A stretch of 61,655 nt of DNA, filler included, from Hausera hauseri (taxonomy: Eukaryota): NCBI GenBank assembly GCA_046269625.1. It is 10 parts of 10 records of this genome, joined end to end, with 100 filler letters (N's around TTAATTAATTAA, not from the genome) between each part and the next. Parts side by side here need not be neighbours in the genome. Positions count along the whole stretch, not along the records: positions 32,753 to 39,523 come from JBJURY010067106.1; 9 more parts are not named here. The stretch is one strand, 5' to 3'. The position numbers and the translations under genes were made by a program. Every line of letters starts with the position of its first letter. Position 1 is the stretch's first letter. Of the stretch, positions 14,741 through 51,117 are shown piece after piece. The notes beneath the pieces are model-generated. The model was not told the origin of the DNA. It made no database searches and saw only the letters and a program-made list of their open reading frames with translations.

Positions 14741-15291
14741 AACATACCTATCCCACTTCTGACACCAATTTAGTTCCGTAAAGTAGATAAAATGAATGCA
14801 AAAGAAAATAAGTCCAAAAGCCTTGATATATTGTAATTAATTTCTTTTTTAAACATTCAAAATGTAATCATTAACAAAATTCAATTTTTTACAATCAATT
14901 AATTTCCATATGAAGAATAAAAATAATAATTAACAGAAAAACGTCCACAGAATGTTTATGAGTGTTCGAAATAATGTTATGGTATAAAATTGGCAGGTCC
15001 ACCTATTGGCAATTGTAATTTCATTTCAATGTCATTATTAACTTTCTTAAGTAGATCACTCCTGCCTGCTAGGAGGGAATGTTGAAGAAGTATGAGATGA
15101 CATCAACATTTCAATTGCCGGATATTGACGAAAATGAAGTAACTGTTGTATCTTTTGTATGGAGTACGATTCACCCCGAATTGGGAGACGAATAAGAGTG
15201 ATTTAATGATCGACAACTGGTACATTCCATTGATGGAATTGTGTCCGTACCCGGCCAAAATGGACCAGGGGCCGCAACGGACGGTGGTCAC

Positions 15292-15396
15292 TGTGGTGCC
15301 CACAGCGGCTGGCGCCCTTTGGTCCATTTGGTTGGACACGGCCGGGCATCCGCTGCCGCCGCGTCGGGCCCATAGGCGGGCCCCGATCTTTCGCCT
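15292..15396 (+). repeat. 105-nt GC-rich retroelement terminal module (TGTGG...TCGCCT), copy 1
   Basis: Alignable by eye with 17245-17350 and with the reverse complement of 33742-33846. Confidence 0.85.
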
Positions 15397-16379
15397 ATAA
15401 ATTTTATTTTACGATGCTTGAATTTGCATCAACAAGGTAAGAACAGTTAACAATTTTCTGCATGTGTTTAAATAATAGCAATGTATTAAGCATAGAAAAT
15501 CATGCAGCAAAGTAAAACATATTACCCGTGTAATGTTATAATTTTATCCCATGTATGGGGAGTAAGAGCTAGCACTTTTTACCATAGCGGTACTCTCTGA
15601 CCATGGAGATAGGGCTCAGTTATTCTTCTCTGGATTTGAACAGCAGATTTAATTCATTTCTAACATGCAGAGTCTATGACTAATTGTAGCATTTTTTAAA
15701 GCAGTGTTAGATATAATATTGGTGACATGTTCCAGCTGGTGTTTGTTTAACCAGAAAGAGACGTTACTAAGGTCATAAAAGATTTGATCATGTTTGTTTG
15801 ATTTGTATAAAATGACCCACCTGAGTGGAAACACGCAGCTGCGCGGATCAGGACAGGCGGGCCGTGTCTTTGTGTTTTCTGCATTCATTTATGAATGCAT
15901 CACTTTTATTTATTTGCTTTTGATTGGGCTCCAGTAGAAGAATAACTCTGATTCTGCCTCTTTATATAACAGATGGTAAAAACAACGGGGGGACCGGCTC
16001 TCGGAGCGTCAGTATCCAGCCCCGCCATGACCACCTCTGCTGTGTCTCTGCTGCAAGACACCCTGACTGATGAGGAACGAGAGCTGTGGACGGCTCTGGG
16101 GTCCAACTGGACACTGTCTCGGTCAGCATCAACAAACCCAGACACATAAAATCAGAGCTTACAGTTTACACTAAACATGACAATGAATCCAGTTTTACTT
16201 TCTTCTTCTGTAACAACACAACAATGAAGTAGAATTAAAATTAGTCAAAAATAACTCTTGCTTATTTAGTTCTTCCTTTNNNNNNNNNNNNNNNNNNNNN
16301 NNNNNNNNNNNNNNNNNNNNNNNTTAATTAATTAANNNNNNNNNNNNNNNNNNNNNNNNNNNNNNNNNNNNNNNNNNNN

Positions 16380-17020: not shown

Positions 17021-17244
17021 CCTTGATGCGTCGACTGTGGCCCTCTGGCCCATTAGGTTGTGCACATTCTGTACATTCACAACAGCCGTTGCATTTTTTA
17101 AAATATTTAAAACAATATGTCAATTCAACATCTGATGATAAAATGTTTACATTAACCAGTGAATTTTGTCGCTATGCGTATGATGATTATGCCCTTTGAA
17201 TGGGTAAATATTAAACATTGACATTTGGTGTATATATAACATAC

Positions 17245-17350
17245 TGTGGTGCCTGCGTCGACTGTTGCCCTCTGGCCCATTCGGTTGTGCACAGCCGGGT
17301 TTACCGCTCCCGACGCGTCGGGCACATAGACGGGTCCCGATTTTTCGCCT
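17245..17350 (+). repeat. 105-nt GC-rich retroelement terminal module, copy 2 (partial copy also at 17027-17066)
   Basis: TGTGGTGCCTGCGTCGAC...CCCGATTTTTCGCCT; same start and end as the other copies. Confidence 0.85.
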
Positions 17351-18120: not shown

Positions 18121-18122
18121 AT

Positions 18123-21426: not shown

Positions 21427-21479
21427 TCAGCCAATCAAATTTCAACCAATCAAATTTCAGCCAATCAAATTTCAACCAA
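21427..21479. promoter_or_regulatory. 15-bp tandem repeat (x3.5) containing CCAAT boxes upstream of the Polinton polB region
   Basis: TCARCCAATCAAATT repeated; regulatory role inferred. Confidence 0.5.
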
Positions 21480-23655: not shown

Positions 23656-23814
23656 TTGCCTATCAATCGAAAATCGTGCGACAACGACGTTTGTTTACAG
23701 TTGAAAAGCTAGTTGATCTACAACATTTTCTCAAGCCGCTACCAGCGAATTGTTTTTTGACTCATTCAACGACTACCGGTGCAGCGCTTTTTATTTCTGT
23801 CAAGGTGTGTTCCT

Positions 23815-24018
23815 TCAGTAATGGTAAAATCGATTTGCATTCATATAGTACATCCTGTGCTGTTTTGCTGCCACGTCTCCTATACGCTTCAACACCGGAA
23901 ATGGTAAACGTGCCAATGTACACAACCATTCAGAGACATATTGTTTACCAACGACATGCGGCAGTTCACCGCCCTGCTGAGGTTTACTGTAAATGGAAAC
24001 GATTTCAGAATCAATCAT
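23815..24018 (-). CDS. Small Polinton protein with QxGG motif (putative core protein)
   Basis: QQGGELPHVVGKQY; lies between penton and major capsid genes. Confidence 0.45.
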   Translation of the reverse strand: MIDSEIVSIYSKPQQGGELPHVVGKQYVSEWLCTLARLPFPVLKRIGDVAAKQHRMYYMNANRFYHY

Positions 24019-24019
24019 G

Positions 24020-24981
24020 TTGGTTCGACGGAAATCAAGAGTTAGAGTGGTTGTGGCACCTTACAGAAATTCTAATATTGACATCAACATTGTTTATAGA
24101 TGTAGTTACCACAGCCAGGTACATTGGATTATCGAGCTTGACAGGGACATTGTCACCAGCAATATACTTGCTACTTTCCGGATAAATTACACGGAGTAGC
24201 GGTACACGTACTCCACCAACCAAAATCGGTTCGTGACGTTCACGTAAATGTACATTTGACTTAGGCCAGTTTTTATTTTGGGTTTAAGTGTTGTAACATG
24301 TGCCGTTTTCGTATTTGATGCCTCAAACTGATGTTTTTCAAAACCCAATACCATAGCAAAAGCTTTGTCCAATGAAATGTCGACAATCTGATTCAAAAAC
24401 TTTACATATTTCCTTGCACTTTTGATTTTAAAAGTATTGACAGGCATGTGATACAGAATCGATATGTATGATGTTGACACCCTTTGTTCTGTGTAGGTAA
24501 ATTTCACCGTTGTCTGGTAATGTACAGGACTTAATCTTGAAGCAACTGCATATGCACTTTTAATATCTCTACCTTTGTACTCTGTATTTTTGAATCCAAA
24601 TTTCTGCGCCATCTCAGAGGACATAAAGGTAACAGAAAATTCAAAATCTGTCTAAAATCTAAAATAAAAGCACCGATTTTGCCGAGTGGACCGTAATTTG
24701 CTTCGGTCGTACAAGTGGCCGATTTTCCAACTGTTATTTTATTGTTAGTAAGTGTCAGAGGGCAAGAATGTGTTTTTGGTTTTAGTAACAGTCTTGTACG
24801 TTATTTTCACACTATCTTTCAACGTCACCGGTGCATAGGGAAAATTAAATTTTGTCAGTGCAACCTCCCATCGGGCGGAAAAATCTAACGGATTGTCCTA
24901 ATCCACAATGTATTAACTGGCTCAACTGTTCGGTCGAATAGTCGGACAACTATTACTCGGTAACACTATGTAAAGACTCAT
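24020..24981 (-). pseudogene. Polinton minor capsid (penton) copy 1
   Basis: MSLYIVLPSNS..PLDFSARWEVALTKF N-terminus; MYIYVNV..VGGVRVPLLRVI..PMYLAV..INNVDVNI C-terminus. Confidence 0.8.
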
Positions 24982-25023
24982 GATCTCGACGACAATGATG
25001 ATAGTGATGGAGCAGTTTCTTTA

Positions 25024-26036
25024 TTATCGACGACGAAAATGTAGCATCAAATGTGTCTTGGTTTCAAACAGAAATTTAATTGGTTTCCAAAATTCGTCTA
25101 CTATATACACGGAAATATTGTGCACAAAATTGTGAAACAACGATAAATACATAGGCTGGATGATTTTTACATGAGCAGTTTCGCCCGGTGTTTTGTGCGT
25201 GTCCGAATCCAGTCCAATAGAAGGCAATAATTCTTTACAGTCTCTACTAACATATACGGATTAGGTTAGATCCATTAAAATATTGATTCGATGAAATGCT
25301 TCGTAGAGACATGCTTTGTGTTTAACAATAATGGGCCGTCCTCCGCCGGTTTGACCGAATTCTCGTTTCTTAAAATCCAGATTAAGTGCCAATAGTTCAT
25401 CAAATGCAAAATATTTAATATTATCATGTAGTGTAAACGACTATCAGAGTTTAATTCAAATGTCTGGAAAGCCAATTTAGCTAATGCCAAATGGTTTCAC
25501 ACAAGTCTGTTTCCTGTTGTATGACAGTAAAAGAATGATTTAGTCTTTTGGCAGTTCACTATAATATCGGTGATTTTAATGGTGTTCATTTTTTCACTAG
25601 TTATACTATGTTCATCGAGCTGTAGAACTCTTGAGCACATATTGTCAGATTGAAAGCCCCATGCCTGAACGTTGGCCAGCAATTTAAATCACAATTAAAT
25701 TGGACGTTTGTGTTTTAATACCCATCCATTGTTTAAATGAAAAATATAAACCGGCAAATATTGCCGCTTGTAATTGCGAATGTGAAATCCTTTAGAGTCT
25801 CGGACTAACTTCAAAAGACTAGATAAAGGAGATTATCTTAGTAGAGTACAGTATATTCCACTGTTCTCACGTATTGTTATTGGTGAAAATGTAAATGTGA
25901 ATTCCACCAAAGCCACTTCACAGGATTCCTGGGGTAAGTCGAGCGGCTGGTCCAACGCCATGGTAAACCGTTCATTGGTACTGCTGTTGTCATGTTCTGA
26001 TAATCTGTTACTATCAAGTACAAAATAAATGCTCAA
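25024..26036 (-). pseudogene. Polinton minor capsid (penton) copy 2
   Basis: SIYFVLDSN..FTMALDQPLDLPQESCEVALVEFTF; PMYLSL..ISVYIVDEFWKPIKF..LMLHFRRR. Confidence 0.78.
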
Positions 26037-26930
26037 GTCAATATGCGATGCAAATATCCAATTCGGTGTAGTATGTCCGTGCCACTTGACGAGATATCGT
26101 TTATTCGAATCTTTGCAACGTGAACGTAGAATTTCTTGAATACGAAACACATCAGGTTTTCCGGCAGTACTTGCAGTTCCTGTTCGTAAAATTTGCCACG
26201 TAATTCGTCACCATTTTCATCTTCTAAAACGTGCAAAACATGTGTTTGTTTTGTGTTGATTGATGAAATTCGGAAAACCTCATCGCTCTAGTTCTGATTG
26301 AAATTCTTAATGAATGGTGTTGTACTCAGCCTTGAAATACGTACATAACCACCGATTTTATACTTGGGAGGTTTAATTGGTCGTCGTCATCGTCATTGTG
26401 TTCAGTTTTGGTAAAACCACATGTTAAAATCATCGATTACATCCACTGGCCGTAATCCATTGATGCCACAATGTGTCCAATGATTGTATGCATGGGTAAT
26501 ATCCGGCAGTACATCTACCCAACATTTATTGTCTTGCTTCGTAAAGAATTTGTTTAGGCGACTGCGCAATGTTCGATTAAATCGTTCAACGACTGCAGCC
26601 TTGTATTGTGAAAACACTGAGTAGTGGTTTACACCGAATTGCCTCCAAACCAATGTGACATGGGAGTTGTAAAATTCTTCACCCAAATCCGTTTGTACAT
26701 GTTTCAGTGGTTGTTGTTCAATTAACCTGTGAATAGCGTCGGCAATCTCTTTACCGGATTTGGATTTGACGGCAATTGCACGTGCAAAACGACTAAACAC
26801 ATCAATACATGTCAGCACATGCCGATACCTATCGTTGATGCTAGCGTACAGAATCATTTCCATTACATCTGCAGCACGGTATGCACGAGTGAGCAACGTC
26901 TTCTTATCGGTTTGTTTAAGCTGTATTGCT
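26037..26930 (-). pseudogene. Polinton retroviral-like integrase with C-terminal chromodomain
   Basis: LTCIDVFSRFA, VQTDLGEEF, AAVVERFNRTLR (DDE core); GKFYEQELQ; FRIQEILRSR..YLVKWHGH..WI chromodomain. Confidence 0.92.
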
Positions 26931-26989
26931 AACTGTTTCCCCAGTCAGTGTTGGGTTTGTTGCCGACTGTTTGACAGTCTTTGCCAGTT

Positions 26990-27261
26990 TGTCGACGCCA
27001 GTATACCCGACGGGATGACGCTTTTATTATTGCGTCCAGGTCCTGTTTGTCAACTACCCTTTCGAATGAACCGTACGGCAAGGTTTGCAAAAGCGCCCAG
27101 CCGTACAGTTTATTAATGTCGATATACAACAGTGATGCGGTATCATCACTGGTTACGTGATCTTGTTGACAAATGTCATGCCATCACGAATACCAACATC
27201 AAACATTCGGTACATTTCCGGGTCTTGCAATAGCTCGATATCCCGATCCAGTGATATCAGA
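26990..27261 (-). pseudogene. Polinton pPolB fragment
   Basis: IELLQDPEMYRMFDVGIRDGMTFV..YIDINKLYGWALLQTLPYGSF; paralogous to 18838-19023. Confidence 0.85.
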
Positions 27262-27848
27262 NNNNNNNNNNNNNNNNNNNNNNNNNNNNNNNNNNNNNNN
27301 NNNNNTTAATTAATTAANNNNNNNNNNNNNNNNNNNNNNNNNNNNNNNNNNNNNNNNNNNNGTTTGGATATTTTTTATGACAATTTTGGACTCATCTTTA
27401 GTGTAAACTGTTAATATTAAACCGCATTATTTCAGCAGTTGTGAATACAGTTATAATTTAGAATGAAATAATAAATATTGAACAATAATTGATAATGTTT
27501 TTGAATTGTTAATAAAAAGTATAGTTCAGCGGCTTTTTGGATTTAATCTCTGAGATTTAAGTATGCATCAAAGTCACCAATGTCCAACCTGCCATCATCT
27601 CACGATCTAAATCGGGAACTTCATTGGCTATCTGGTACCTTTGATAATGTTTTTAGTAGGAGTTTTATGTTTGCACACCGGCACTGTCAGTCTTCCATTC
27701 CTCTTTGATTGGAAGATCGATGAAACGTATTTTCCTAATTTGGGATTTTCCCATATGTAAGTATTTTCATATACTTCTCTCTTTGGGGTGATTATGATGT
27801 AAAATACTGCTTCTTTTATTTTCCCATGACTGCAATGTTCGGTTGTGA

Positions 27849-28930
27849 TTAACATTCTCGGTAGATCCTCTGTTGTTTCGAAATGTTGATTTCGAGGGAG
27901 TGCCTATTTCTAAAAACGTTTACCTCCGTAAGCCGTTTTGGTTCTTCTGGAGATTTTTGTTTCCTGATTATTGCTTCTTCTGGGTCTTCCATGGTCGTTA
28001 GTCGATTTTCTGCTGGCAATGATTCATTAGTCCCTTCTGTCATCTCGATCGTCCTTAGGGTCTCTCTGGTTCTAGTTTTGTGCGCTCTTTTAAATATAAA
28101 ATCATACAATGAAGTTTTCTTTTTAGTGTTTTGGATGGGTAAATCGACCTTCTGTTTCTTTGGAACCTGGGGAACTCTGAAAGTCATACTGTCGGTCCCT
28201 TTTTTAGTCAGATGTTCGGAAGTCTCCTGACTAGAACTGGGTATTTGGTTGTCACTGATTCTAGGTACCGTAATCTCACTAGATTTATATGGCTGGTATT
28301 GTTTCCGATACTTTCCATTAATTCCATCTGGGTTTGCAGAGCTGATTAAGTTGTGCTCGAGATTCTGGGGAACCCATTCGTGTTCCCATAATAATCTTGC
28401 ATAAATATCTCGAAGGTGTTGGGTACGTTGACCCGCTGTCAATAGCTTACTGACATTAACACGACTATTATTCGCGGCTTCCACCATTAGCTTAAAATAA
28501 GCATCCATAATTTTCGGCATTGGATAGTCTCTTCCCCGCAATAATTTCTTTGCCCGCTCGGTGATAACGGAGTGTGCTGAGTTCTCTTATCCCTGTGAGC
28601 TGTGAATAAGGAAATTCTAATAAAGATATAATTTCTTCCACACGGTATCCAACAAGGATGTACCCATATAGGAAATAAGCTAATTCTGTTTGTACAACCT
28701 TGATATCTTTTCCATTCCTTAGGTTTTCTTTATGAATCTATGTCTGATCGTATAAGGTTCCCCTGACACGTTTTCTGGGACTAATAATTGTGTGATAAGA
28801 TTCTATTCCATTTGTCTCTCTGACTGAAATATCCATTGGGATTTTCTCTGTTTCGCTTCCTTCGCCACAACTTATGGCGATAATTCTTACGTTTCTAGCA
28901 TTCGATACCAGTATATAGGAGTATAAGTAT
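27849..28930 (-). pseudogene. REX4/ISG20-like DEDDh exonuclease-fold accessory protein (acidic ExoI residues lost) plus low-complexity tail
   Basis: RIIAISCGEG..MDISVRETNGIESYHTIISPRKRV..KENLRNGKDIKVVQTELAYFLYGYILVGY follows the REX4 pattern ALDCE..RVSIVN..YDKYVKP..GIRPENLK..VVQKEVAEMLKGRILVGH. Confidence 0.65.
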
Positions 28931-29598
28931 TTTTCCTATTCTGATTCTAACAGTTCATGCCAAAATCTTAGGGGCGGTAAGGAGACATGGTCTTGTTCAT
29001 CTTTCGTTACCTCAATCATCATCTTAACGGGGAGAGCGGTGACTCGAAATTCTAATTTCTTATCCTTCGCTTTGTAATTTAAGGGTACTGAACCTGTATT
29101 ATCTTCCATTTCTCGTGTTCCACTCTTGGTCTTGGAGCCGGTAATAAATTTTTCCATCGGCTAGATGGATATAAAGGTCTCGACCAAATTCGTAATTTAC
29201 TAACTGCCTGCGTGAGTATGCCCTAGCATCTCGGTCTTCTCTCATGGCATAGAGATAGACAACTATAGTTTCTTCTGTGGTTCCCTTTAAATTATTCGGT
29301 ATAGTATGGACCTGGTCATATTTCACGGCTACCTTCCCGTGTAGTTCGTTGTGGATCGCTCGATAGATGGAATTAGAATTCACAATAAGCACGGTAGCGC
29401 AATCTTGCAGAAATTCGTCGATACTACGTCGGCATATTGAAATGTTTCTTTCTTTCGGTGCGTCGATCCTACGTCGTCCGATATTTTATGGTTCTTAATT
29501 CTGAAAAATAAATCATAAGGATTACTCTTACAATAAAGAACGGTTCTAAAATAAAACCAATTCTTCATTTGATGACAGAATATCCCACTCTGTAGTTG

Positions 29599-31000
29599 TC
29601 AGGTTATTTTATCATACGGATCAATAGGGTTTTCCAATTCCCTTAGTTCCCATTCCGTAATTTTAGGACGCTTAGAATGACAATTTTTTGCAACTAACCG
29701 AAAAATCGCAACTAATGTAGTGAGAACAAACGTTGACAGTACAACGATCGATACGATCGGTAAAGTGGTTAATCCCATTGGCGCCGGAGTGGTGATTGGA
29801 GTTGCGTTTTCATCGTCTGTTTTCGTATATTTGTGATTTTGACGAATTTCCTCTAATGTGCGCAATGTAATTGTTTGGTTTTGTTTATTCTTTGCATGTA
29901 CTTGAACTATGTAATCGGATAGTGGTTTTAGCAAGTTGCATTCTGTCTAGTAAGGGTTTTAAGCAAGGATACAATTTGATTATTATACGTTGTTCGGCAA
30001 CGTATGTATATATCGTAATCTAGTTTCTCCTCCACAAAGAACAATTTTGAATCGATGTGCCGAATATTTGATAGGGATATTTCCAATTCTCTTTTAGGCG
30101 TAGTGCCCGGCGTAACGATTCTTGCAAGGGTATTAATCCGACTGGTCGGTCTTTTAGTTGTCATTTCTATCGAAATTTTCCATATTTTATTCTCGGAATA
30201 GTAAGTTCGTAAGTACATACTCTGTTTGTTAGGTTGCACTTTATATAGGTCAAATGTTATTTTGAATTCCTTATTTATTGGTAGCTTACAACATGGATGT
30301 TGCACACCGGCACGGATGGAACAGTATTCTATTTTCGGAGTTTGTCCGTTTACCGTTTCGACGACAATACTAATTTCTTGGCTAATGTTTAGTCCTGTTC
30401 AAGCATCTACTTGGATGCACTGTTTTTCCTTATTTATTGAAATCTTTTTATATTCTCGTCTAATAACCTTATCTCTGGATTGGTGGATTGCAGAATTTCG
30501 ATGGGTTTCCTTCCTAATCACCCCGGCCAAGGGGAAATAACCAACCAAAGTTGTGGATTTACTTCGATGTAGATTTCTGTTGAGGCCGGCAAAAACATGC
30601 GATAAGTAAGGATGTATGTACGTCCAAAATCTATGTCGCAGCACAATGTATAATCTCCGGGTTCAAAATCACATTTTCCCGCTTTTTTGTTGCTTCATCG
30701 TATAGGATAATCTGAAAGTTCCCAAAATCGTGATGTAGCCTCCAAGTTTTAAATCCAACATATACAGCATTTGGCAAAAAGTACTGAACCATCATTGATT
30801 GTAATAATTCAATGTCTTCTGCTCTTTGGTTTCTTCTCCGGTATGGTAATCTTCGCTTTCAGCCCGCTTTTCCGTATTCCGTATACGTCTCCTAGCATAG
30901 ATTCGTCGTCCTACCATTGAGTTTGTGTTTTTGGGATATAGGAAGCAATTAACGATAGTGCTAAAACTATTTGAACGTATGATATTGGCCTAGAAATTAC
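29599..31000 (-). pseudogene. Post-integrase single-pass membrane protein with FN3-like strand(s)
   Basis: Signal-like ISYVQIVLALSLIASYIP; LKPLSDYIVQVHAKN (FN3 L.P...Y.V.V.A.N); TM LPIVSIVVLSTFVLTTLVAIF followed by basic residues. Confidence 0.55.
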
Positions 31001-31049
31001 TGAAGAAGTTTTTATCTCGCGTTGACGCAAATTACAACGTTTATTGGGC

Positions 31050-32652
31050 CGTATCTCCGTCTTTACGATTCTCTGTACTGAGATAACTTCTTCCTTTTCG
31101 TTTTTGTTAATGTACACTGCAGTTGGCGTGGTTCTGGTAATTTCGTATGGTCCTCTGCCTCTACGAGTCAATTTTAATGACGTGTCTTTTTGGCTACCGG
31201 GTAATGTACATAAACCCAATTTCCTGGTTCTAGATTGTGTAGCTTAGCCTTCTTATCGCATTGTTTTTTAAATTTTTCTCGATATTCTCGGGACAACTCC
31301 TTAGCGATTTCCAAACATTTTTGTAGTCGCGTTTGCAATACTTTTGCAAAGTTTTGTTCTAAATCCTCGGGATTTACTATGTATGGCGTCATTTCTAAGT
31401 CTGTAGGTAGAAGAGTTTAACGTCCATACATCATGAAAAATGGCGTAAATCCTGTTGCGGGGTGGTATTAATTGCAAATTGAGTTCCTTCTAGAAATATA
31501 TCCCAATCCTTTTGGTCTTTGGCTACTACAGTCGATAGTATGCGTATAACAGTCGTATTCATTCGTTCAGCCATTCCATTGAAATGAGGATGATACACTG
31601 CTTTAGTTAACCTTTCGATTTCAAATATTTTACGAATCTTTTCGAATAGTTTACTGGTAAAATTTCTTCCTCAATCTGTTATTATTTGATCTGGCGGTCC
31701 ATATCGGCAAATTATTCTTCTGACTACAGCTTCTGCCAAAGTTTCTGCTTTTTGATCAGTCAACGCTACCAAATCGACAAAATGAGTTAGTCGATCAATA
31801 CAAGTCAAGATATATTTATTATTCTTGTGAGTCGTAGGAAGCGGTCGTACGATATCTATTGACATGGCTTGCATAGGCCTATCGGGTACGGCAATTGGTT
31901 TCAGCTCTGCCATGTAATTCTTTGTCTTTTTCTGTTTAGTAGCACATACATCGCAAGCATTTACCCAATTCTTACATCGATATAGATACTGGACCAAAAG
32001 TATTTGTTCAATACTCTTTCCAGTGTTTTCCTCCAGGACGTGTCCTGTCAAAATATGAGTCGTGTTTCGACATCAGAACTTCAGTTCGTAAGTTTTTTGG
32101 AATAACTTTCAATTTTCTTCCTTTTCGTTCATAATATAGAAGGTTTTTTAAGCTCTTGTTGTTTAGAACGCAATATTTGTGCCCGTGTCTACGTAGATGT
32201 TTCTTTAATTGTCGTCCTTTTGGTATTATGTCCTTCTCAGCAAATTTTATAATCTGCTGGATAATCCTATTCTTTCTTTGTTTGGTTGAGATTTTAATCG
32301 CTTTATCCATCCTTAGGACATTGGCGATCTATTATTTCTTCAAGCTGACTTTTCTTCATTACAGTAATTGCACTTGTTTTGGTCTTTAATATTGATGGTG
32401 CATCGGTGTCTACATGTTAATTTCCTGGCTTATACTGAAATTCGATATTAAGTCTAGAGATTTCTTCGATCCATCTGTTAAATGTGCATGTTGGATTATT
32501 CGCTCGTCCTTTTAGAGTCGTGGCGGCTTTATGATCAGTGAAAATTATAATTTCTTGCCCGTGCACGTAAACGTTGAAGTGTTGAAGCGCTTCTTTTACG
32601 GCTAGAGTTTCTAATTCAGTAACGGAATAATTTTTCTTGACCTTCTTCAAGG
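31050..32652 (-). pseudogene. Gypsy RNase H and integrase (family B)
   Basis: NYSVTELETLAV..IFTDHKA (RH); H..GH..CDVC (zinc finger); MSIDIV, YILTCIDRLT, IITD, NGMAERMN (core); GRGPYEI (GPY/F). Confidence 0.93.
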
Positions 32653-32783
32653 NNNNNNNNNNNNNNNNNNNNNNNNNNNNNNNNNNNNNNNNNNNNTTAA
32701 TTAATTAANNNNNNNNNNNNNNNNNNNNNNNNNNNNNNNNNNNNNNNNNNNNCAAATTTGAAGCGATCAAAGAATTGGTATTA

Positions 32784-33201
<418 letters not shown>

Positions 33202-33741
33202 CTAGTAAATCTTTACTCTAATAGACCAAAACACTCAAATAAGAAATACTTGTTTTCACACCATATTCGAAGTCATCGTTGCAAGATTGTGATAAAACTT
33301 TAGCATAACTAATTACAGCATCACCAAGCTTTTTAATTTCCGCTAAATCAAAACTAGTTTCTTTATAACTTCGTCCTTTACGCATGTAACACTGAATATG
33401 ATATCTATCTGACATATGGAGCGGAGAAAACGTCAAAGTTTTAATTTCAAGTATAAGACTTTACAATTTCTATGGTCGGATTGCCTACTGGCGATTGACA
33501 TGAGATTGAAGTAGGTTGCTTGACATGTTGAACTTGAACAGATAACAGCTGATTTATGAATGACTCTGACAAATATGACAAAACCCGTTTTAGCGAGAGA
33601 GCTTACAGTCCTGTCCATGTCATTGGACGCATTACGGTTACGTCATTTTGATACTTATAGAAAAATGTAAATCTCTCTGAAAAATGGATCGATTAAAATG
33701 TTTTAAAACATTTCTGCTGCTAATAAGTCATTGTTGCCTCG

Positions 33742-33846
33742 AGGCGAGAAACCGGGCCCGCTTATGCGCCCGACGTGCCAGCAGCGGAAAACCCGGCCGT
33801 GCCCAACCGGATGGGCCGGAGGGCGACGATCGACGCGAGCAGCACA
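33742..33846 (-). repeat. 105-nt GC-rich terminal module, copy 3 (start of the 3' terminal repeat of family A copy 2)
   Basis: On the minus strand it begins TGTG three nt after a polypurine tract. Confidence 0.85.
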
Positions 33847-33849
33847 TTA

Positions 33850-33861
33850 CCTCCTCCCCCC
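33850..33861 (-). promoter_or_regulatory. Polypurine tract of family A copy 2
   Basis: GGGGGGAGGAGG downstream of integrase, followed by TAA-TGTG. Confidence 0.8.
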
Positions 33862-36800
33862 GTGGCAAAGTTGGAACTATAAAGAATAAAAGATACAGAA
33901 AAACCTCAAAACGAAAAGTGTGTGTTAGTTGAGCTTAGTGTGTATAAGGCGTTGAATACCTTCGACTGATTTTTTCCTACTATATTGGCTGAATGTGGCT
34001 TTGCGTGTTGTGTGTTTGTACAATGTGTTTGTTTACAGATGTTAAGGTTGGGGAAAAAAATTGGTATATTTTGGTGTAGGTGTTATGTCGTGCGAAGGTG
34101 AATCAGAATTAATGGAAGATAAAGACGAAGAAGGAAGAGGGATTGTTGAAGACGGATGATTAAAGGTGTTGTAAAGGGTGTCAGAAGACGAAGGAGTGAT
34201 GAAAGGTGTATTGGTGGATGAAGGAAGAGAAGAAAAGTTGTAGTAGAGATTGGAATTGTGTTGAGTGAAAGAGTTGAAGAAGCAGATGATACAGAGGTAG
34301 TGGTAGAGATAGGAAGACTGATAGGAATAGAAGTAGAAGTGTAGAAAATTATGGAGCAAGACTAGGTGCGGAAGACAAAGGTAAAAGTGGTGCAGCAATA
34401 GATGTAGTGGCAACAGGGAGTGGAGGAGTAAGAAAAGAGTTTGGCATGTCGGTTGGTAAGGTGTCGTCGACAAAGAAAGCGGGCTTGAAGTTAGTAATGT
34501 GTACTGTGAAGTCTTTGCCGTCTTTGGATATGATGGCGTTATGCGAGTGCAGCTGTATAAGTTTATAGGGTCCCAGGAACCTTGGCTGGAAATCGCAAAA
34601 AGCTTGATTCTTCAGCCATACGAATTTTGCCGTGTACAAATCTTCATGTAAGTATGTTTTATCTTTGTGAAGTATCATGCAGAACAAATCTTTACTGACC
34701 TCGACAAAGTGATTTTGCGCCGCCCGTATCGTCTTATCCGTGGAAGTGTCATCTAGGGCGGTTAGTTCGAATAATGATCGGACAGGAGCTCCGAATAAGT
34801 CTTTATTAGGTGAGCATCATGTGGAAGTTGACGGAGTGTTTCGCCATCCGAGAAGAACGAACGGAAGAAGATTCGTCCAACTACTGTTCGACTCTGCGAG
34901 AATTCTTAGTGACGTTTTCGATGTACGATGGAAACGTTCTAGGAGGCCATTCGATTGGGATGATAAGGCTTAGTATTTATGTGATGGATCCCCAATCGGT
35001 TAACTAGGGATTTGAACAGGTTGGATTCAAACTGTGGACCCTGGTCCGTGATGATAAAGCGAGGTGATCCGAACCTGCTAATCCACGTGCGAATGAAAAC
35101 GTCAGCTATGATGTCAGTGTTTGTGCTTCGCAGAGGGATGGCTTCTGGCCATCGTGAGGAACGGTTTATCACGGTGAGGATGAATTTATGACCGTTGTCT
35201 GGAGGAAGAGGGCCAACGATGTCGATATGCACGGATTCGAAACGCGATGTGAAGGGAAAGTGGAATAGTGGTGGATTTAAATGCTTAGTTGTTTTGTATT
35301 TTTGGCATGCCACACACTCCTTAACCCACGCTTGCACATCAGAACGCATTGACGGCCATATTACTTGTCGATGAAGTAGACGAAAAGTGGCTTTAGCACC
35401 AGGATGGTGTAATGAATGCACATGGTGAAATACTTGCCTTTGCAATGAAGGTGCTAGAATTATTACTGAATGGCCTAGTTTGGAGGTGTCCAAGGCCACG
35501 CCGTCAACGATTGTGCAAGATTTAAAAGACTTAAGAATGTCTTGAGGTGGCTGGTTCTCTTGAAGTTGGTTATTCGTGAAGATCGGTAAAATGTTAATCG
35601 AACTAACCGATCTAGATAAAAAATCAGCAACTAAATTGTTAATCCGTTAATATGTTTAATATCGAAGTTAAATGTTAATTAGTATGATATTTGTCGTTCT
35701 TGGCGTCTGGAAGGCTGTTTCATGGCCATGATGTTAAGCAAAAGCTTGTGAACAGTTTATAGAGTGAAATGACGAACGACAAGTAGGTGTGAGATGTGCT
35801 TTAAGGCGAGAACGATTGCCAATAGTTCTCAAAAAAAGTGGAATATCGGGTTTCAGGTGCTGTTAGCTTGCGGGAGAAAAATTCTAAAGGTTGGTTTTCT
35901 CCCTTGTAAATCTGGTGGAGTACAGCGCCTACAGCAGTGGTTGACGCGTCAGTGGTGAGGATGAGCTCTGCATCAGGCTTGGGAAAGGCAAGGATATCAA
36001 CGGTCTGATGTTTTTTGCCGCGACTTGTCAATTCCGAGCAATAGGGTATGTATTTATGTAAAAAGTGTAGTGTGCCAAGGAAGCTACGCATTTCGGTAGT
36101 TGGACGTGGCAATTGGATGTTTTTAAGGGCTTCGACTCGGTCTGACTGGGGAGAATGTCCGTCTGGTGTGATAACGTGGCCTAAAAGTTAATGCGCTTTT
36201 CAAAGAAGTTGAATTTGTCGAAATTGATTTGGAGATTATGGTGGTTGAGACGTTGGCGTATTGCGCGAATGTGTTCTTCGTGTTGTTTGGCGGAAAATGA
36301 AACAACTAAAATATCTTCGATATAAGGGTGTGCAAACGAGAAATCGGAAAGAATGGAATCAATGTGTCGCTGGAAAGTTCTTTCGGCATTTCGCAAACCG
36401 AATGGCATAAAGAGGTATTCATAGAGGCCAAAAGGAGTAGTTACAGCGGTTTTTTCTATGTCTTTGTGTGCCGGCGTACTATGCCGGAACGTTCTAGTTC
36501 GAGAAATTCGGCTTCTACGGTTTGTCTACGGTGAGGTGATAGAGGCCGTACCTTTTGGTGTATTGGACGTTGATGCTGTGTGACTATATGGTGTAAGGTG
36601 CTGTTGGAAGGAGTGAAAGTACAATATTTTTTAAGTACGCTTGGACATGATTTGTTGATGAACTGTTGTAAAGTTGTAGGTAACTGAGAGATTTTGTGAA
36701 GATGGTGAAACGGCTTGAGTGGTAGCGGATGTAATGTGTGAGTTGGTAGGTGATGTGCATTCCAGTGGTATTTGATGTAAGATGGTTAAATTGAAAATGG

Positions 36801-38443
36801 TGTTGCCTGAGGTATTTTCGTCGAATGAGTTGTCGTTGGTGGCAGTACCACAATTATCGACATTGAACTTCAACCGAATGTCAGTATTATTATTTAAAAA
36901 TTTACGGTCGAATGCGCGGCAGTCGAAACGTAATTTATATGTCCAGAAATGTCGCCAACGGTGCCTTTCCTCAAACACCGCTGACTGCAGTCAACCAGTA
37001 AGTTGTAGTGTGTGAGAAATTCAGATCCAAGAATTGCTGACTGGACGTTAGCGACTGTGAAAGTGCAGTGGAGGTTGAAAAAAAATTCAGCAGATTGAAA
37101 GATAATTTGGACGTGTCAGAAATGTGCAGCGGTTGGCCTGAATCAGTGTATAAGTGCTTGATCTTGAATGAAGTATTTTGTGCGGGAAAAGTTGATGGTA
37201 ATAAAGAAATTGCTGCACCTGTATCGATAAGAAAATTAATAGATTGTGTTGAAGGGGCAGTAATTGTAGCCTTTAGAGTAAAGACTGCATAAGAGACGTT
37301 TCGGCGTGCAGAATGTGAAGTAGTGCCTTTGCCAGAGTTTGCCGTGACCTCTGGCGGCGAACTTAGTTTTTTTGGAAAGATGAACTGGGACAACTGTGAG
37401 AAGTGAAGGCAGTACGTCTGTCATTCGTATTGGACTTGAAGGTACAGCCAGAGATACATTTACGTGCTTGATTTTTGAATCTCGCGTGGTAAGTGCAAAC
37501 AACGCTGTCCAAGGAAAACTTCTGGTTATAAAATTGGCAACCCAGGCAGAATTTCTGAGCATTAGTGTTGAATCAGCTGTGATAATAGGAGATCGACGAA
37601 CGCGCAGGCGATGGTGAGCGGTTTCGTGACGTAGAATGGGTACAGGAAGCGGCAAAGCCCCCTTGGCGGGACAGAGACAATTCGTTCAATTTATTATTGA
37701 TGTTATTGATTGTTGCATGTAATGCAATGTTTTCAGCAAGTAGCAGATTAAGTTGTTGTTCAATAGATGTGTTATCGTTAGCGTCAACTGCTGCTGAAAC
37801 GATTGGTGGTGAATTTGCATGTAAGATATCGTGTGTCCTATAGGCCAATTCGGCCAATTTTTCAAGCGGCCTGGAATCTCCCACCACGGTAAGGAGGGCC
37901 TGGATTTGTATATGTAGCGCATTAAGAAAATAGTGGAGTAGAAGATCTGGGTTGTGCTCCTTAGTGACACCAAGAGTACGCATGTGTGCTAATGACGTGC
38001 GTAAGAAGTCACTGGGATTTTGTCCCCATTGCATTTTCATTAAAGAAACGTTGCATTATGGAGTCAATTGAAGGTTCGGTCTGTTTTAATACAGCGTCGA
38101 ATAGTTGGTATAAGGGTCAGGGTGTTGAAAGATGTCTAGCAAATTATGTATTACGGCTTTTATGGAGTTTGGGAGAAGATAAAGTAAGCTGTGGGCTTTA
38201 GATAAGGAGTTTGTGATACCATTAGACTGTAGCGAGTTGATGGAAGTGAAGCCACGTTTTACTGGACTTTTCATTATCTATGAAGTATTCAGTGCAATTT
38301 GTAGAAGTATGAACAGGATTTTTGTTTGAAGAATTTGCGTCGGTAAAAATAGGTGGATGATTTGGTCTGGTGTAGTAGAGAATAGGTATTGACTTTATTG
38401 TGTTGGTAGTATCCGTGGTGTCAGTGATTGGCGGAGAGTTCAT

Positions 38444-38660
38444 TCCACCACGGATACGGAGATGTATGTTGAAGCAAGCGTGATTTGAAAAATAAGATAA
38501 AGTTTCGTTGAGATATATGATAGCGCCGTGATGGCTGAGACAAAAGTCTGAAGAACCAAGGAAAGAAATGCGGGTCCGAAAAGTGGGAATGTGCGGATGT
38601 GGTGAATTGAGGGTGTAGATGTGTATGTTATAAAAAAAGGAAAATGAAAGTGGGAGCAAT
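38444..38660 (-). CDS. Ubiquitin-like domain at the Gag N-terminus (family A copy 2)
   Basis: ~72 aa; FCLSHHGAII..ETLSYF..FNIHLRIRGG followed immediately by Met. Confidence 0.7.
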
Positions 38661-40515
38661 GGTGGGCCTGGGGGTATGATGTGGGGCCAACGCCGAAGGC
38701 GCCGTCCGACCGACCGGCGCACAGTTGGCGGTTGGAACCTCCGCCCGGCGGAGATGGCACCAAAATGCAGGGTGCCCGAATTTCCCCTCAAAAGTAGTTA
38801 TCCAAGGTGCCAGTGGGCAAAACCTCTGTTAGGAAATACAATGTCAAAGAACTTACAGAGGAAATTGGTGGCAGTAATCCAAACTTTTCGAGTTTTGGAG
38901 TCTATCATATCAACATATTCTTTTTTCAAGAGAAACTGTAACTGTAGATGGCGATGGTGGGCCTGATGGTGGAGTGAGAGATGTTTCTTGAGAGTTTGTA
39001 TAGAGAAGTAAATGAATGAGATGTTGCAGTTGACAGACCTAATACAGTTTCTATCACTGTGGAATTTCCGATCTGGCGTTGAACGGCAACTTTATGGGCT
39101 AGACGATTATGCAAACATAAAGTAGGTCCAAAACCGTTTTTACAATCATACAAACGACCTTCGAGTACAACGGCGAAAGTATATTGATCAGCTTTTAACA
39201 GCATATAAAGATCTGTGAAATCAATAAGTTTGGTAGTAAAACGTGTTTCAATAATCGTGTTAACATGTGTGACCGACTTGACAGACACTCGATCACGGAA
39301 ATATTGAATAGTCTGACCAATGATACTGTATATATCGGTTAATTGTGTCACACCAGACGGACTTAGCGCTGGTGGAGTGCTACGAACATCATTCAGGTCA
39401 ATGAACTGATTCTTTTTTATTCGAACTTCGATGGCATCACAAAACGGTAACTATCGTTCTATTAATTGGTCAATATTACGTCTTTCGTATACTTTAAGCA
39501 CAGCGTTATCATTCAATACTCGANNNNNNNNNNNNNNNNNNNNNNNNNNNNNNNNNNNNNNNNNNNNTTAATTAATTAANNNNNNNNNNNNNNNNNNNNN
39601 NNNNNNNNNNNNNNNNNNNNNNNAAGTGTCGTCATGAGATTCTTCGAATAATGCATGCTTGACCGAATATTCGAGTTAGATTAATTAAATATTCGACTTG
39701 TAAGCTCGAATTAAAATATCTATCATAATATTCCGATTGACCATATATGACTTCCTATCCAGCCCCGCTATTAGAATTATCAATTTCCGCTTCACTGAGC
39801 TTTAAATGCACATTTTGATTAATTAGATATATTGATTTTGTATCTATATGAATCATTTGCATGGAATAATTTTTATGTATCAGGTGGTTTTCATATATGA
39901 GGAATCGATTGTCGTTGTTAAAGTTTTCGAATAGTTCGAACTTCGATATTCGAGCTTGAAAATAATCGAATTTCGAATATCTGACTTGAGATTCGTGATC
40001 GCTATATTCGATTTTCTATCTGCCCCGCTAATTATAATATCGAAATTTGACTCAATAGGACCTAAAATACTTATGGAAAGTCTACCGCAGTTGAACTTTG
40101 GATCAATATTAATCGAAAACTAATCAAAAAATTTAAATTTTAATTGCACATTCATGTACTACACCATGTTTGTGTTCGAATGTACCCGGTCACATGTACT
40201 AATCATCAATATTGGAAATATCGGAAAACCGATATTATTGATTTTTGCACACTTGCACATGTGTTTTTGCACTGCACAGTATATATTAAGGTGAATCTCA
40301 ATGTGCTCTATCTATCTGCACTGACCCCAATCGATTCCATCAATCCTACGCTGCACAATGACAAATATGTGAAAAGTGTAAAGTGCCTTGGTAACCGTAT
40401 CCAAGAGCATACCTGACGCGAGTATTTCACTGAATGATAGTACATCAAGTACTGTACCCGCCAGTATATGTGCCATATTAATAATATTGATTTTCAATTT
40501 ATGACGGAAAGTCCT

Positions 40516-41599: not shown

Positions 41600-41775
41600 T
41601 AGCACTAGCACGTGCTATTGCCCTCTAAAATCGCGTGACCAGCCACAGCTGACGTCATTGAAATTAGACATGCACACATACGCGCCACGTACACTAAATC
41701 CAATTGTTACCCTTCTATTGGTCGTGTGATCACAAGGTAATACGTACATCAACAACCACAGGTATATATTTGGTA
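41600..41775 (+). promoter_or_regulatory. Putative Pol II promoter
   Basis: CACGTG, TGACGTCA, GCCACGT, CCAAT/ATTGG and TATATA clustered just upstream of the ORF at 41808. Confidence 0.45.
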
Positions 41776-41807
41776 ATCTTTCTTATTCAGCTCCTTTTTT
41801 AAAAAAA

Positions 41808-47100: not shown

Positions 47101-48790
47101 AAACTATTCGCCCGCAAAAAGGAGTCTGTGATATGATTGGCTTTAAGCCATTGCAAATGGAACTGTAACCAAGTGCGACTCGACTTGGTTTTATTAAGAA
47201 AAAAGTCTGTGCAAGGAAGATTTGGGAATGTAATTGGTGTGGGGTCGGCATGGCGACGACCAAATCTGATATTTGTGGGGTTTTCCACATAAGAAGGATC
47301 AGGGTCCGACCCACCCCGTAAGCGAAAATGAAGCATGAGACAGGTGTCTGGACGTTTGTGGCATACGAAAGATGAAAGGGAGTCTGAAGGATGTACTATA
47401 AGTCCTTGATATGTGAAATAAAAATAAGAGATGCTATATGATGAGGCAGTGTTATATAAGAACTGTGCTGTCTCGTTGAGTGGAGCTTGTAAGGTTGTAA
47501 TGTGTTGGTTGTAGCTAAAGACCAGGTAAGATAATTGTGGTAAGGTCATCCCAAGGGAACGATGAAATGCAGGGGGCTTGGGCGGTTACCTTTTGGAATT
47601 AAGAAGCGGTTCGAGTGTACAGCCGGGATAGCGGTGGCAAGTGATGATTGGGACAAAGGAAGATCCAAAGATGTTAAGCTTACAAACCCTTTAAAATAAA
47701 AAATGGTTTTAGCCAGGAAGGGCTTGCATATGCGCGAAAAATGGTCACACTGGTAGGCGCGAATAAATGAAAGAAATCTCACCCACGTGTTTAGATGCCG
47801 CTGATGATGGAATATCTGCCGATCGATCGGTAAGGTTGCTGTAGTCTCACAGTACGTCCATACAATCAATACGGTGGTCTGATCCGGAAGGTTCGAAGTG
47901 CAACATTTGACAGTGAGCGGCGATTGGACAGACAGACACGTATTTCTGGTGTATAGAGTTTGCTTGGCACTAACTTCATCGTCTTGCAGGACGCGCATGC
48001 CCATTTATCATCGTTCAGCGATTCATGTTGCGAGCGATCAGCCCCATTCACAATGATCCCGACGGAATCACAGTTGTACCACTGGTTTTAAACGTGACAC
48101 AAATCGTTTGAATCTTCTTTAGACGTATTTCGAAGAACGTGTAAATCGTCTTTAGAATCTGCCTCTACAGAAAGCACTTCAAATCGCCCTTTCAACTTAT
48201 GTTGTTCATCAATTGAGCAGCACTTAATTAGACAAATAATCTCTGTCCGACAACCGAAAAATTGACAGTTTACTGTATACGTTATTGTCGCACTCTTTCG
48301 TCAGGATGTGAAGCTTCCTTTTAAGTTCGTTATCATTTAACCGAAAGATGTTCTTGACAACCTTCGGAAATGTTTTTGCTACTAAATCAATTAACTTTCC
48401 ATCGTGGTCGGACAACTTTTCGTAGTCAGTGGTTATTAGATATTTAAACAAGTTTATCCAAAGGATTTCATCTTCCTGAGACTTAAATACACGATTTAAT
48501 ATGCACCACGGCAATGAATACAACATGACTGCGTTATTGCTTGAAAACCTTTTCCAACTGCTATATGACGATGATCGACTAGAATTCTGTGAGGAATTTT
48601 CTGTACTCTGACAATTAAATGCATTAAGAGAATGAATTTGAGAATTAGTTGTTGAACAAACGTCATTAGTTTGATTGTTTGTCAATTCGGAATTTTCGTA
48701 ACCATTATTTAGGGGCAATTTCGATCGGCACTCAATGTTTGCTTTGAATTTCTGTTTGCTCGATCTGGCAACACTCTTTTTGTTGTCCAA
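44182..48790 (-). mobile_element. Ty3/Gypsy family A copy 3 (upstream ORF, UBL-Gag, PR, RT, RH), decayed
   Basis: LMLHFRLRGG; Gag near-identical to copy 1; FLIDSGAAFSL (PR); KKDGTYRPCGDY, TIDLHKAYHQIPI, MPFGL, YIDDIL (RT); LTTDA, TDHKS (RH). Confidence 0.93.
47310..47549 (-). CDS. Ubiquitin-like domain (80 aa, Met to LRGG) at the Gag N-terminus (family A copy 3)
   Basis: MTLPQLSYLVF..FYFTYQGLIVHPSDSLSSF..LMLHFRLRGG versus ubiquitin RLIFAGKQLEDGRTLSDY..LHLVLRLRGG. Confidence 0.8.
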
Positions 48791-48879: not shown

Positions 48880-51117
48880 CCGTCAACTGTTTTGAACTTC
48901 TTCGCCAGTTGTTTTATTCTGTCTCTGTTGAGTTGTTAATACATTCTGAATTAGCTCTCCATTGATGTACGTATTTGGGGAATTGTGCTGACACGTATCA
49001 TATATGGGCGACAACGATGACACAGTAACAACTGGGATTTTTATGCTATAATGGGATTCTGTGCTACCATTGGAAATCACACCACCTACTTCTAGATCTC
49101 TAACTTTACCGATTTGATAAGGAGGACTTATATCAACTCCACAAACAATGACTGATTTATCAGACACATCTTTGACGGTATCATTGTACGAAAATTTTTC
49201 TGTATAATGAGATGAAAAACACGAAAGAGACGTCACACTATCCGTTAAGATGTAGTTCATATATTCAGCACCACTCGTTCCTGGATAGACCAGCCACATT
49301 ACTTGAATGGGAGCCGGTCTTAATGCAAATATCTCATTTCTGGCACCCTTTGTGTATCCGTTCTTGTTGACAAGAATGTATTTTATCAGAAGTTATTTTA
49401 TCGGCAGCTTTAACATCGCATTGTATGGTGTGCAAGTCAAAGAAATGCTCGGTTTCTCGGAGAATTTTAACACGGAATGTCGTTCCATTGTCCGACGTTA
49501 ATGAATAACAGAAAATTTCCACTTTTGAACTATCGTGTTAACCAAGAATGCTCTGCATCAAATGACTGGTGGGGTAATTACAAAAATCGGAACTGACATA
49601 GCCAATTCGTAATCGTTCACCGAGTAATAATTTTGAATTGAATTTATACTTTGTTTTACGAAGTAGAGAAACTTTTTCAACGCACAGATTTGCGTGCTTT
49701 TCTGCGATATGTCTTCGTTGTTCTGGTGTTAAAGGATACAACATGGTGTGGTGAGGATGGACAGATGGAAGGCATCTCATTTCTAACTGCTCTTGAACGA
49801 TAGCTTCCAATCGTTTCATTTTATCATTATAATCTTGCGAGTCGCAAATAATCTGTAAACAATGGGCTAAATTACAAAATGCGTCAAGATAATTTGGCTT
49901 AATTTTTAATGCGGAACGATAAGAATTAATTACTTCATTTATGTTCCCTGTGTCTATAAATGCTATCTAAATTCGAGTGAGTATCAGCAAATGTTGGATT
50001 GATTTGAATAGCTGTCTGATAACATTGCATAGCTGCATTTACGTCCTGCATTTCCTTCACAGTGTTTTCCATATTGGAATGAACATCGGCGAAATTCGGT
50101 GAAATTCTAATCGCTTCTCGATATTGCATTAAGGCTTCATTTAACTTTCCTTGCAATTGCAACATGCCAAATTTGAATGTGCAGCTACAAATTCCGGATA
50201 TACAACTGCATACGCATATACAACTGCATTGCTTCTTCCGAATGACCTTGCTCTCGTTTAATATTGGCAAGATTATTTAATGAGTCGGCATGACTTGGTT
50301 GCAATCTTAATGCCGTATTATAGCATTCCTCAGCTTCTGATACTTTTCCTTTCTCTTTCAGAGCATTTGCAAGATTACAATAAGCGTCAGGAAAATTCGG
50401 CTGCAATTCAATGGCTCTTCGATACGTATCTATCGCCAAATCAACAAGATTTTGTTCGTAATAAACACAAGCCAAATTCCCATGAATTATGGCATTATTC
50501 GAAGCTAAATTCAACGCCTTTAAATATGCTGTAACGGCTCTATCGAATATCCTTGCTTCCTTAAAAACATTTCCTAGATTTATATAGGCGTCTAAAAATT
50601 TTGATCGACAGTTTTTTTAATGATGAATGGCAAGCCATATTTCTGATTGTGCGTTAAAAACATCCAAGGTTACTCCAAGCAACAGAAACTTGTAAGCACG
50701 TTTCTACTGCTTTTAAATATCAGCTATTCGCTACATCCAATCTTTCCAAAGCCTTAAATAAATTGCCTAAATCACTACGAATGTGGTACAAATCGGGATT
50801 ATTATTCAACACGGTCATATGTTTGCTGATAGCTGATTCTATATGACCGGCTGCAACAAATTCCGCTGCCAAATTCAGGAAATAATCGATAAATTTCGGT
50901 TTAACCCGAAGAGTGTGTTTGTAATTTTCAGTGGCATCGGCCAGTTGGCCTTTTTCTTTTAAAATATTACCCGAACTGGAGTAGGCTTCGGCCATTTTGG
51001 GATTTTGTTTAATTGTCAAATGGCAGAAAAATATCAATTTGTAGAATTTTCTTATTAGGAGTCGATCGAACTGAGTAATAATAAAACTGCATTATTGTAC
51101 GGTTCTGATTTCCACAG
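48880..51117 (-). pseudogene. OGT: O-GlcNAc transferase, intronless, disrupted and 3'-truncated
   Basis: VLLLLSSI; AEAYS..GNILKEKGQL; [46 protein letters not shown]; [14 protein letters not shown]; [22 protein letters not shown]; MWLVYPGTSGAEYMNYILTD; many stops and frameshifts. Confidence 0.95.

Follow-up and report, generated by a model that had tools for sequence, protein, structure and literature searches.

The locus analysed here raises the question of how the ends of a Ty3/Gypsy element family are built. LTR retrotransposons are defined by direct repeats, which are rebuilt with the help of a tRNA primer and of two strand transfers guided by homology. In this DNA, a GC-rich module of 105 nt follows the polypurine tract (PPT) of one element, and a diverged copy stands inverted before its gag gene. 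The window, i.e. the whole stretch of 61,655 nucleotides from Hausera hauseri (GCA_046269625.1), consists of 10 contigs joined by N spacers. Two Gypsy families are present, one bearing env and the other, family A, represented by three decayed copies; satellites, Polinton-type pieces, and part of a non-LTR element are found as well. The preliminary description had offered two options for family A: LTRs with long inverted arms and a variable interior, or a Gypsy element bounded by inverted repeats. Our analyses confirmed that the module is a real feature and that it is inverted, on better evidence than that given before, drawn from decayed copies and one supporting sequencing run.

The other parts of the window have their own contents. 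Positions 1-11194 hold two distinct tandem satellite arrays with copies about 70-85% alike. The Polinton-type pieces (17664-27200) include a protein-primed polymerase B, in which a 450-bp segment is duplicated, and an integrase frame (26405-26944). The second Gypsy family (51792-61655 and 27362-32652) has a broken gene for a Monjiviricetes-type fusion glycoprotein, a zinc-knuckle Gag, and a RING-finger frame. The 3' part of a non-LTR element (16381-17052, minus strand) shows zinc knuckle and restriction-like endonuclease motifs by eye, and a weak zf-RVT match. Three open frames (307, 132, and 115 codons) on the plus strand of 41730-43822 have no Pfam match. The cellular gene pieces in the stretch, such as that of OGT, have AT-rich third positions (GC3 0.30-0.31), which makes an invertebrate the probable carrier.

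Three diverged copies of module A had been reported at 15292, 17245, and 33742. All were found there (Table 1), with pairwise identities of 76-81% (blastn E 4e-11 to 9e-20) and a GC content of 63-70%, against 35-40% in the background. The fixed ends were also borne out: 3/3 copies begin with TGTG, and the alignment ceases after TCGCCT. The PPT beside the 33.7-kb copy is present as well. The att motifs of CsRN1 are given in Table 3 of PMC3601003 as TGTGGYG (5') and MSYYAMA (3'). The 5' motif is matched at 6/7 positions by the 33.7-kb copy and at 7/7 by each of the other two. Since a PPT precedes the module, the att motif matches, and the LTRs of relatives start with TGT(G/C)(G/C)TG, the TG end of the module is the LTR start of the clade. 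Overlooked before were the inverted copies at 38680-38788 (module B) and 47578-47681, the direct partial copy at 17027-17066, and the inverted half-module at 15242-15291. No match to the module was obtained by a pattern search of viral contigs, by nhmmer on 86 loci, or by a covariance model in 100 loci or 3 genomes; compared with the loci and genomes searched, this stretch alone has the GC-rich 105 nt. Polinton ends read AG...CT, and module A was also considered as a Polinton terminal repeat; this was rejected, as no target-site duplication (TSD) is present and the module goes together with the PPT.

Table 1. Positions of the family A parts and of the adjoining DNA within the window
Feature	Position	Strand	Remarks
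tRNA primer-binding site, 18 nt	14750..14767	-	followed by gene fragments, then copy-1 gag
Inverted half-module (module positions 5-52)	15242..15291	-	lacks the four terminal bases; 34-nt arms, 71% complementary
Module A	15292..15396	+	no PPT; head to head with the half-copy
Flank beyond CGCCT, intron-like DNA	15397..16279	+	intact teleost EPS8L1 exon at 15973-16122, sense to module
Direct partial module copy (module positions 10-49)	17027..17066	+	95% over 40 nt; nhmmer E 3e-7
Module A	17245..17350	+	neither PPT nor body; unrelated DNA adjoins the TG end
Flank beyond CGCCT, decayed, coding-like	32753..33741	-	sense to element
Module A	33742..33846	-	start (U3 side) of 3' LTR of family A copy 2; follows PPT
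Polypurine tract (PPT)	33847..33861	-	between copy 2 body and module A
Copy 2: ubiquitin-like Gag, protease, RT, RNase H, integrase; decayed	33934..38640	-	Pfam; colinearity with P0001/P0100
Mirrored PPT in the expected place of the primer-binding site	38670..38679	+	GGGGGTATGA precedes TGTG
Module B, diverged inverted copy	38680..38788	+	directly upstream of gag, 40 nt away
Flank upstream of module B, 174-codon frame	38789..39523	-	sense; 58 codons on the other strand
Degenerate inverted module with mirrored PPT	47572..47681	+	directly upstream of copy-3 gag
OGT gene fragment, decayed, intronless	48886..51091	-	residues 69-579 on 1,511 bases; sense to copy 3

The best evidence for the inversion comes from copy 2, where A and B stand on one contig at opposite ends of one gag-pol. 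The body of copy 2 gave Pfam matches to RVT_1, RT_RNaseH, rve, and Integrase_H2C2, with many stops and frameshifts. Module B is 56-60% identical to the three A copies from end to end. Its global score of 62.7 was reached by 0/8821 GC-rich background windows from other loci (maximum 51.7), and its local score of 47.7 by 0/500 shuffles. Among 14,346 windows from unrelated loci, the highest-scoring ones equal that local score (43-49 vs 47.7); only the end-to-end score sets module B apart from the GC-rich background. The nhmmer and covariance model searches miss both module B and the copy-3 module. In the coding direction, module B ends in the exact 3' att motif of CsRN1, and the mirrored PPT next to it is a pyrimidine tract; no tRNA primer motif (TGG) was found there. 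Module B would thus be the U5 end of a 5' LTR. Between the two ends of copy 2, a pairing of about 120 nt is possible, PPT and mirrored PPT included (-119 kcal/mol, 0/300 shuffles). At the CCT and AGG ends of copy 2, no TSD of 4-6 bp was found at nine end offsets. No direct repeat was found in the contig (32753-39523), which may end inside the LTRs, and no further module-like match above background was found inside the element body. A complete LTR with A and B together, or a full-length element, was not seen in the window.

The module of copy 3, with a mirrored PPT at 47572-47577, is more degenerate. It is 45-54% identical to A, with a local z of 4.9 (0/500 shuffles) and a global score that 7/6619 background windows reached. 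Its pairing with module A of copy 2 is not beyond chance (167/300 shuffles as good), and no tRNA primer site was found after it. No module was found before the gag of copy 1 (17/500 shuffles); the inverted module therefore stands at 2/3 of the family A gag starts.

The inversion had previously been drawn from the 15.3-kb copy, which does lie 3.4 kb from the copy-1 gag and in the orientation inverted to it. This was the wrong copy to cite; the inversion holds through 38680-38788, on the same contig as its A copy, and through 47578-47681. The minus-strand order is the half-module, 470 bp, the primer site, 2.8 kb of gene fragments with weak colinear Nup160 matches, and the copy-1 gag. The 15.3-kb copy is therefore not the terminus of copy 1, and the earlier caveat that it may be an independent insertion was well placed. 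The primer site, which we take to be of the tRNA-Leu type, is the sole one in the family A contigs; its first 12 bases recur in 9/86 loci. The head-to-head join at 15242-15396 keeps the TG-proximal halves, and the hairpin of the half-module with the 15.3-kb copy has a z of -2.5. The half-module resembles a U5/U3 (CA/TG) junction of two LTR ends; alternatively, an ordinary LTR that has a primer site and carries cargo may begin there.

The proposed hairpin (YYGGTTG-NNCA-CRGCCGG) can pair in 24/24 cells, but the changes are one-sided only, with no compensatory pair. The folding energies of single module copies do not surpass those of shuffles (z -1.1 to +1.1 in 6/6 folds). In a rival consensus fold, positions 1-84 make up a long rod, to which a terminal hairpin is added; of the two strands, the TG-to-CCT one gives the more stable form (-38.3 vs -33.7). 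Both-sided changes were found in 4/35 of its pairs (6/500 shuffles), in three related sequences from which the structure itself was derived. Structure and covariation of the module RNA are thus suggestive only, resting on these three sequences. Known structured RNAs of Rfam (ribozyme, tRNA, 5S) were rejected, with nothing at gathering score and a best E of 0.4 in three local scans. ARAGORN found no tRNA, and a resemblance to the tRNA D-arm/A-box is a judgement by eye.

Read depth was taken from one public run, X1, in which the stretch is present (share 0.35), with its contigs placed at 80% likeness. Their summed depth, which is not a copy number, is 10,142 in the bin with module A and 10-50 in four bins beyond CGCCT; the body of copy 2 has 1,568-196,203, the module B bin 898, and the three bins past it 82-190. 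The 33.7-kb module itself has a mean depth of about 21,500 (arithmetic on the depth table). This contrast indicates that beyond the CCT ends of copy 2 no LTR interior is held in common. The flanks past CCT have nothing in common by blastn (E<0.1) or tblastx. Ordinary LTR homology past TCGCCT, which the preliminary description had named as evidence against its proposal, was thus not seen in the stretch or in the X1 depth, although relatives elsewhere do have ordinary LTRs. The TG ends at 15292 and 17245 adjoin foreign DNA without a PPT. In one X1 contig, a TG end is joined to integrase DNA near 34699 (a weak case, with 28 letters on the short side). Among 15 of the 45 X1 joints, none links two element ends or folds back.

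The flanks are pieces of genes that have no relation to one another. The flank at 32753-33741 looks spliced, because a 42-nt stretch present in one X1 contig (depth 3.2), beginning with GT and ending with TTTCAG in the direction of the element, is absent here. The flank at 38789-39523 may be unspliced, since it keeps a 45-nt GT..AG stretch that is missing from another X1 contig; its frame has no family match. Both candidate introns are in-frame multiples of three. A 198-codon frame also lies upstream of copy 3. The EPS8L1 exon is 89% identical to the Nematolebias protein and 88% to that of Austrofundulus, with a GC3 of 0.62. This killifish-like exon, joined to an invertebrate-type contig, could be a chimera, a capture from a host fish, or a horizontal transfer. 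The flank runs in the sense direction of the module next to it in 4/4 orientable cases, for which the random expectation is 1 in 16, as judged from the EPS8L1 exon, OGT, the direction of the GT..AG intron, and the frame of 174 against 58 codons; the fifth flank (from 17351) is not orientable (58 vs 62 codons). Searches for the gene identity of the flanks at 32784-33131, 38929-39450, 48227-48820, and 14297-14767 gave no match. A BAR domain at 11936-12979 is a lead only. In P0099, from another source, Rrp44-like and CNOT1 pieces precede the same Gag; this may be a joined gene model.

Family A has the order PR-RT-RH-IN with a DDE integrase, and copy 2 has the CHCC motif (CX2HX9CX3C) at 37497. Primer sites in the integrase tree (65 rows, with no named CsRn1 reference among them) were sorted into classes that we presume to be Leu-type and Trp-type. 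Copy 2 was grouped with its closest relatives, P0001 and P0002 (100/100), within a 21-row clade (100/99) that stands beside elements with Trp-type sites; this clade holds all 7 Leu-type rows and 0 Trp-type rows. A tRNA-Trp primer site is absent after module B and after the copy-3 module. The CHCC signature of Gag is that of the CsRn1 clade (PMC2582038). With three CsRn1 features present and the tRNA-Trp site absent, family A may be called a CsRn1-like Ty3/Gypsy family with a ubiquitin-like Gag.

A profile of the three window Gags reached 6 proteins, of which four are Gags and two bear ubiquitin; the Pfam ubiquitin cut-off was passed by 3/4 related Gag frames. The N-terminal ubiquitin-like domain ends in RGG (RGK in copy 1) and lies at 38440-38640, 47310-47550, and 11670-11905, all on the minus strand. 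A ubiquitin-like Gag start is also found in L005, L007, L010, and L015, and near-canonical ubiquitin in metagenome relatives. This suggests that the domain might be cleaved by host deubiquitinases. A ubiquitin-Gag fusion was not described in the literature searched.

Among the 86 loci compared for LTR layout, 8 show, in succession, a PPT, the clade's LTR start, a single LTR about 340-690 bp long, and a primer site. The first 110 bases of these LTRs have 10-20% GC, and 10 stretches preceding the gag of near relatives gave no inverted LTR start. Six loci of G001 (L114, L117, L119, L120, L122, and L123) have no tRNA primer motif in the 250-600 bp of sequence available before gag, and the LTR starts of this set have only 15-45 nt in common. 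A frame that opens inside the LTR and crosses the primer site into the ubiquitin-Gag occurs in L005 (1110-2597), L007 (1309-2739), L008 (2038-3753), L058 (2489-4060), and the window (14297-14836). In several related LTRs, the primer site is not preceded by a terminal CA. In P0105, from a public contig, a bacterial DUF5777 protein is fused to the second half of the family A Gag, probably as a chimera. No related locus was found in viral contigs. A translated inverted module upstream of gag in P0099 and P0100 was rejected (best 9/300 shuffles among 20 comparisons).

The reading that we favour, with confidence and doubt about evenly balanced, is that the LTR of family A consists of arm A, a variable captured RNA, and the inverted arm B. 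Of the two options offered earlier, LTRs with long inverted arms and a variable interior fit best, with the reservation that a complete LTR was not seen. The LTR would run TG-[A]-CCT, an interior varying from copy to copy, and AGG-[inverted B]-CA. The element RNA would begin with AGG and end with CCT, with little or no terminal redundancy (R), and pairing of its two ends might give a panhandle, about 120 nt long, in which the PPT is included. Priming of the minus strand could then start at the pyrimidine tract with no tRNA, the simplest primer being an RNA fragment of PPT type. Because homology could not guide the first strand transfer, the reverse transcriptase would jump from end to end; during this jump, co-packaged cellular RNA might often be copied and become the LTR interior. 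The integrase would act on normal TG...CA ends, so TSDs would be expected at the TG and CA ends and not at CCT. The anatomy can be read directly from the window, and every priming and strand-transfer step is what that anatomy might imply. The favoured reading is supported by the arrangement of A and B around one gag-pol, by the weaker repeat at a second 5' end, by the published att motifs at the start of A and the end of B, by the depth contrast in X1, by flanks that are mutually unrelated and sense, by TG ends that adjoin foreign DNA, by the pairing of the two ends of copy 2, by the absence of a TSD at the CCT ends, and by the head-to-head join that resembles a CA/TG junction. Against it count copy 1, which has no module and follows a genuine tRNA primer site, the ordinary LTRs of relatives, and the 10 gag-upstream stretches without an inverted LTR start. 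The model searches that miss both 5' modules, the GC-rich windows that equal the local score of B, the chance-level pairing of the copy-3 module, and the 15 X1 joints, none of which links the two ends, also count against it. So do the two flanks that look unspliced (the fish intron DNA and the 45-nt stretch), the in-frame length of both candidate introns, and the depth of 3.2 of the one contig behind the spliced flank. A doubtful further step would make family A a high-copy animal Gypsy that lost its tRNA site and R, primed both strands with PPT RNA on the 120-nt panhandle, and captured a new interior over many cycles, including RNA or DNA of contacting fish.

The strongest competitor, itself unlikely in our judgement, is an ordinary LTR family. 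Its active form would have an LTR, a tRNA site, a leader, gag-pol, a PPT, and an LTR, and the copies in the window would be chimeric retrocopies. A would represent the conserved beginning of the LTR and B a structure in the leader, paired with the PPT and A; the reverse transcriptase would have switched to host RNA at the structure edges (LTR-mediated retroposition). Its main support is the order of half-module, 470 bp, primer site, host fragments, and gag on contig 3, a layout as in Tan et al. 2016 (PMC5131818). The 8 loci with PPT, AT-rich LTR, and primer site also speak for it, as the window integrase falls in their clade. Under this explanation, the reverse transcriptase would need to have switched at one and the same base in the three A copies and both 5' modules, and to have done so in two distinct zones (leader and U3); B has the exact 3' att motif and the mirrored PPT, 40 nt from gag, and nothing is common past CCT in the window or in the depth. 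The depth of the module, about twice that of the neighbouring body, fits this explanation and the favoured reading alike. Less probable again is an element bounded by inverted repeats, a unit of 5.05 kb (AGG-[B]-gag-pol-PPT-[A]-CCT) that would insert into genes by its outer ends in a Ginger- or DIRS-like manner. The fall in depth at both outer ends and the flanks resembling unspliced genomic DNA agree with it, and the CA after B lets B be read as a short TG...CA repeat. The nine end offsets gave no TSD of 4-6 bp, the att motifs point inward, the arms are only 56% identical, and the element frames hold no tyrosine recombinase match; at 15292 and 17245 the TG ends lack a PPT, and the sense bias of the flanks would be left unexplained. 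The second option offered earlier thus describes the high-copy DNA correctly and fails for integration, with no TSD and inward att motifs. The least probable explanation is chance or artefact, with B a GC-rich leader resembling A by accident and the foreign joins assembly or amplification chimeras or random truncations, for which the fish DNA in an otherwise invertebrate-like contig, the model searches that miss B, and the short, repeat-rich contigs could be cited, against the end-to-end score of B that no background window reached, the identical break point in three copies on three contigs, and an independent-looking run that holds the flanks of contig 7.

If the favoured reading is true, a family with 105-nt complementary arms, a mirrored PPT, and an unshared interior would be missed by LTR finders, and would provide a routine route for making retrogenes. 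If the family is ordinary, its 5'-3' pairing would still be of unusual length, and its copies would clearly exemplify LTR-mediated retroposition. No description of this architecture was found in the full-text literature searched, and none of the known systems compared here shows the whole combination.

Comparison with known systems places family A near several of them. It is like the CsRn1 clade (CsRn1, PwRn1, and AgCR) in the CHCC Gag, the PR-RT-RH-IN order, the att motifs, and the PPT; unlike this clade, it showed no tRNA-Trp site and no direct LTR pair of about 330-380 bp in the contigs at hand (PMC2582038, PMC3601003). The complementarity of its LTR ends is about 105 nt, against about 7 in CsRn1, and its Gag has a ubiquitin-like domain (PMC2582038, PMC3601003). 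LTR-mediated retrocopies also join partial chimeric host RNA to an LTR element by template switching; their cargo replaces internal ORFs between intact LTRs and shows scattered microhomologies, whereas that of family A lies outside gag-pol and has fixed edges (Tan et al. 2016, PMC5131818). Inverted repeats at the element ends are known from DIRS-1 (PMC5006619, PMC6681497) and Ginger (PMC2836005). The DIRS elements use a tyrosine recombinase and an internal complementary region (PMC5006619, PMC6681497); for family A, 47 frames gave no tyrosine recombinase match, with rve and Integrase_H2C2 instead, and no such region above background was found in the body. Ginger has no RT, outward TG ends, and 4-bp TSDs (PMC2836005), whereas family A has an RT and inward TG ends, and no TSD was found for it. 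DIRS-like split repeats have been described in a Klebsormidium Gypsy (PMC5890265). Copies of PBS and PPT that lie at cDNA ends drive integrase-independent insertion (PMC11042837), which is a possible source of the odd junctions in family A. In the self-priming of Tf1 and Tj1, as may hold for family A, priming is free of tRNA through pairing within the element RNA; their primer site pairs with the RNA 5' end, whereas the tract of family A faces the PPT at the 3' end (PMC4600332). In Skipper, a Ty3/gypsy element of dictyostelids, a pyrimidine tract likewise replaces the primer site beside the left LTR, and non-canonical priming was suggested (PMC5006619). Skipper has identical direct LTRs and a chromodomain, whereas in family A the tract mirrors the PPT inside a long inverted repeat (PMC5006619). 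The tracts at 38670-38679 and 47572-47577 may thus resemble that of Skipper in their manner of working, and if the favoured reading is true, they would supply a testable sequence hypothesis for the priming of such pyrimidine-tract elements.
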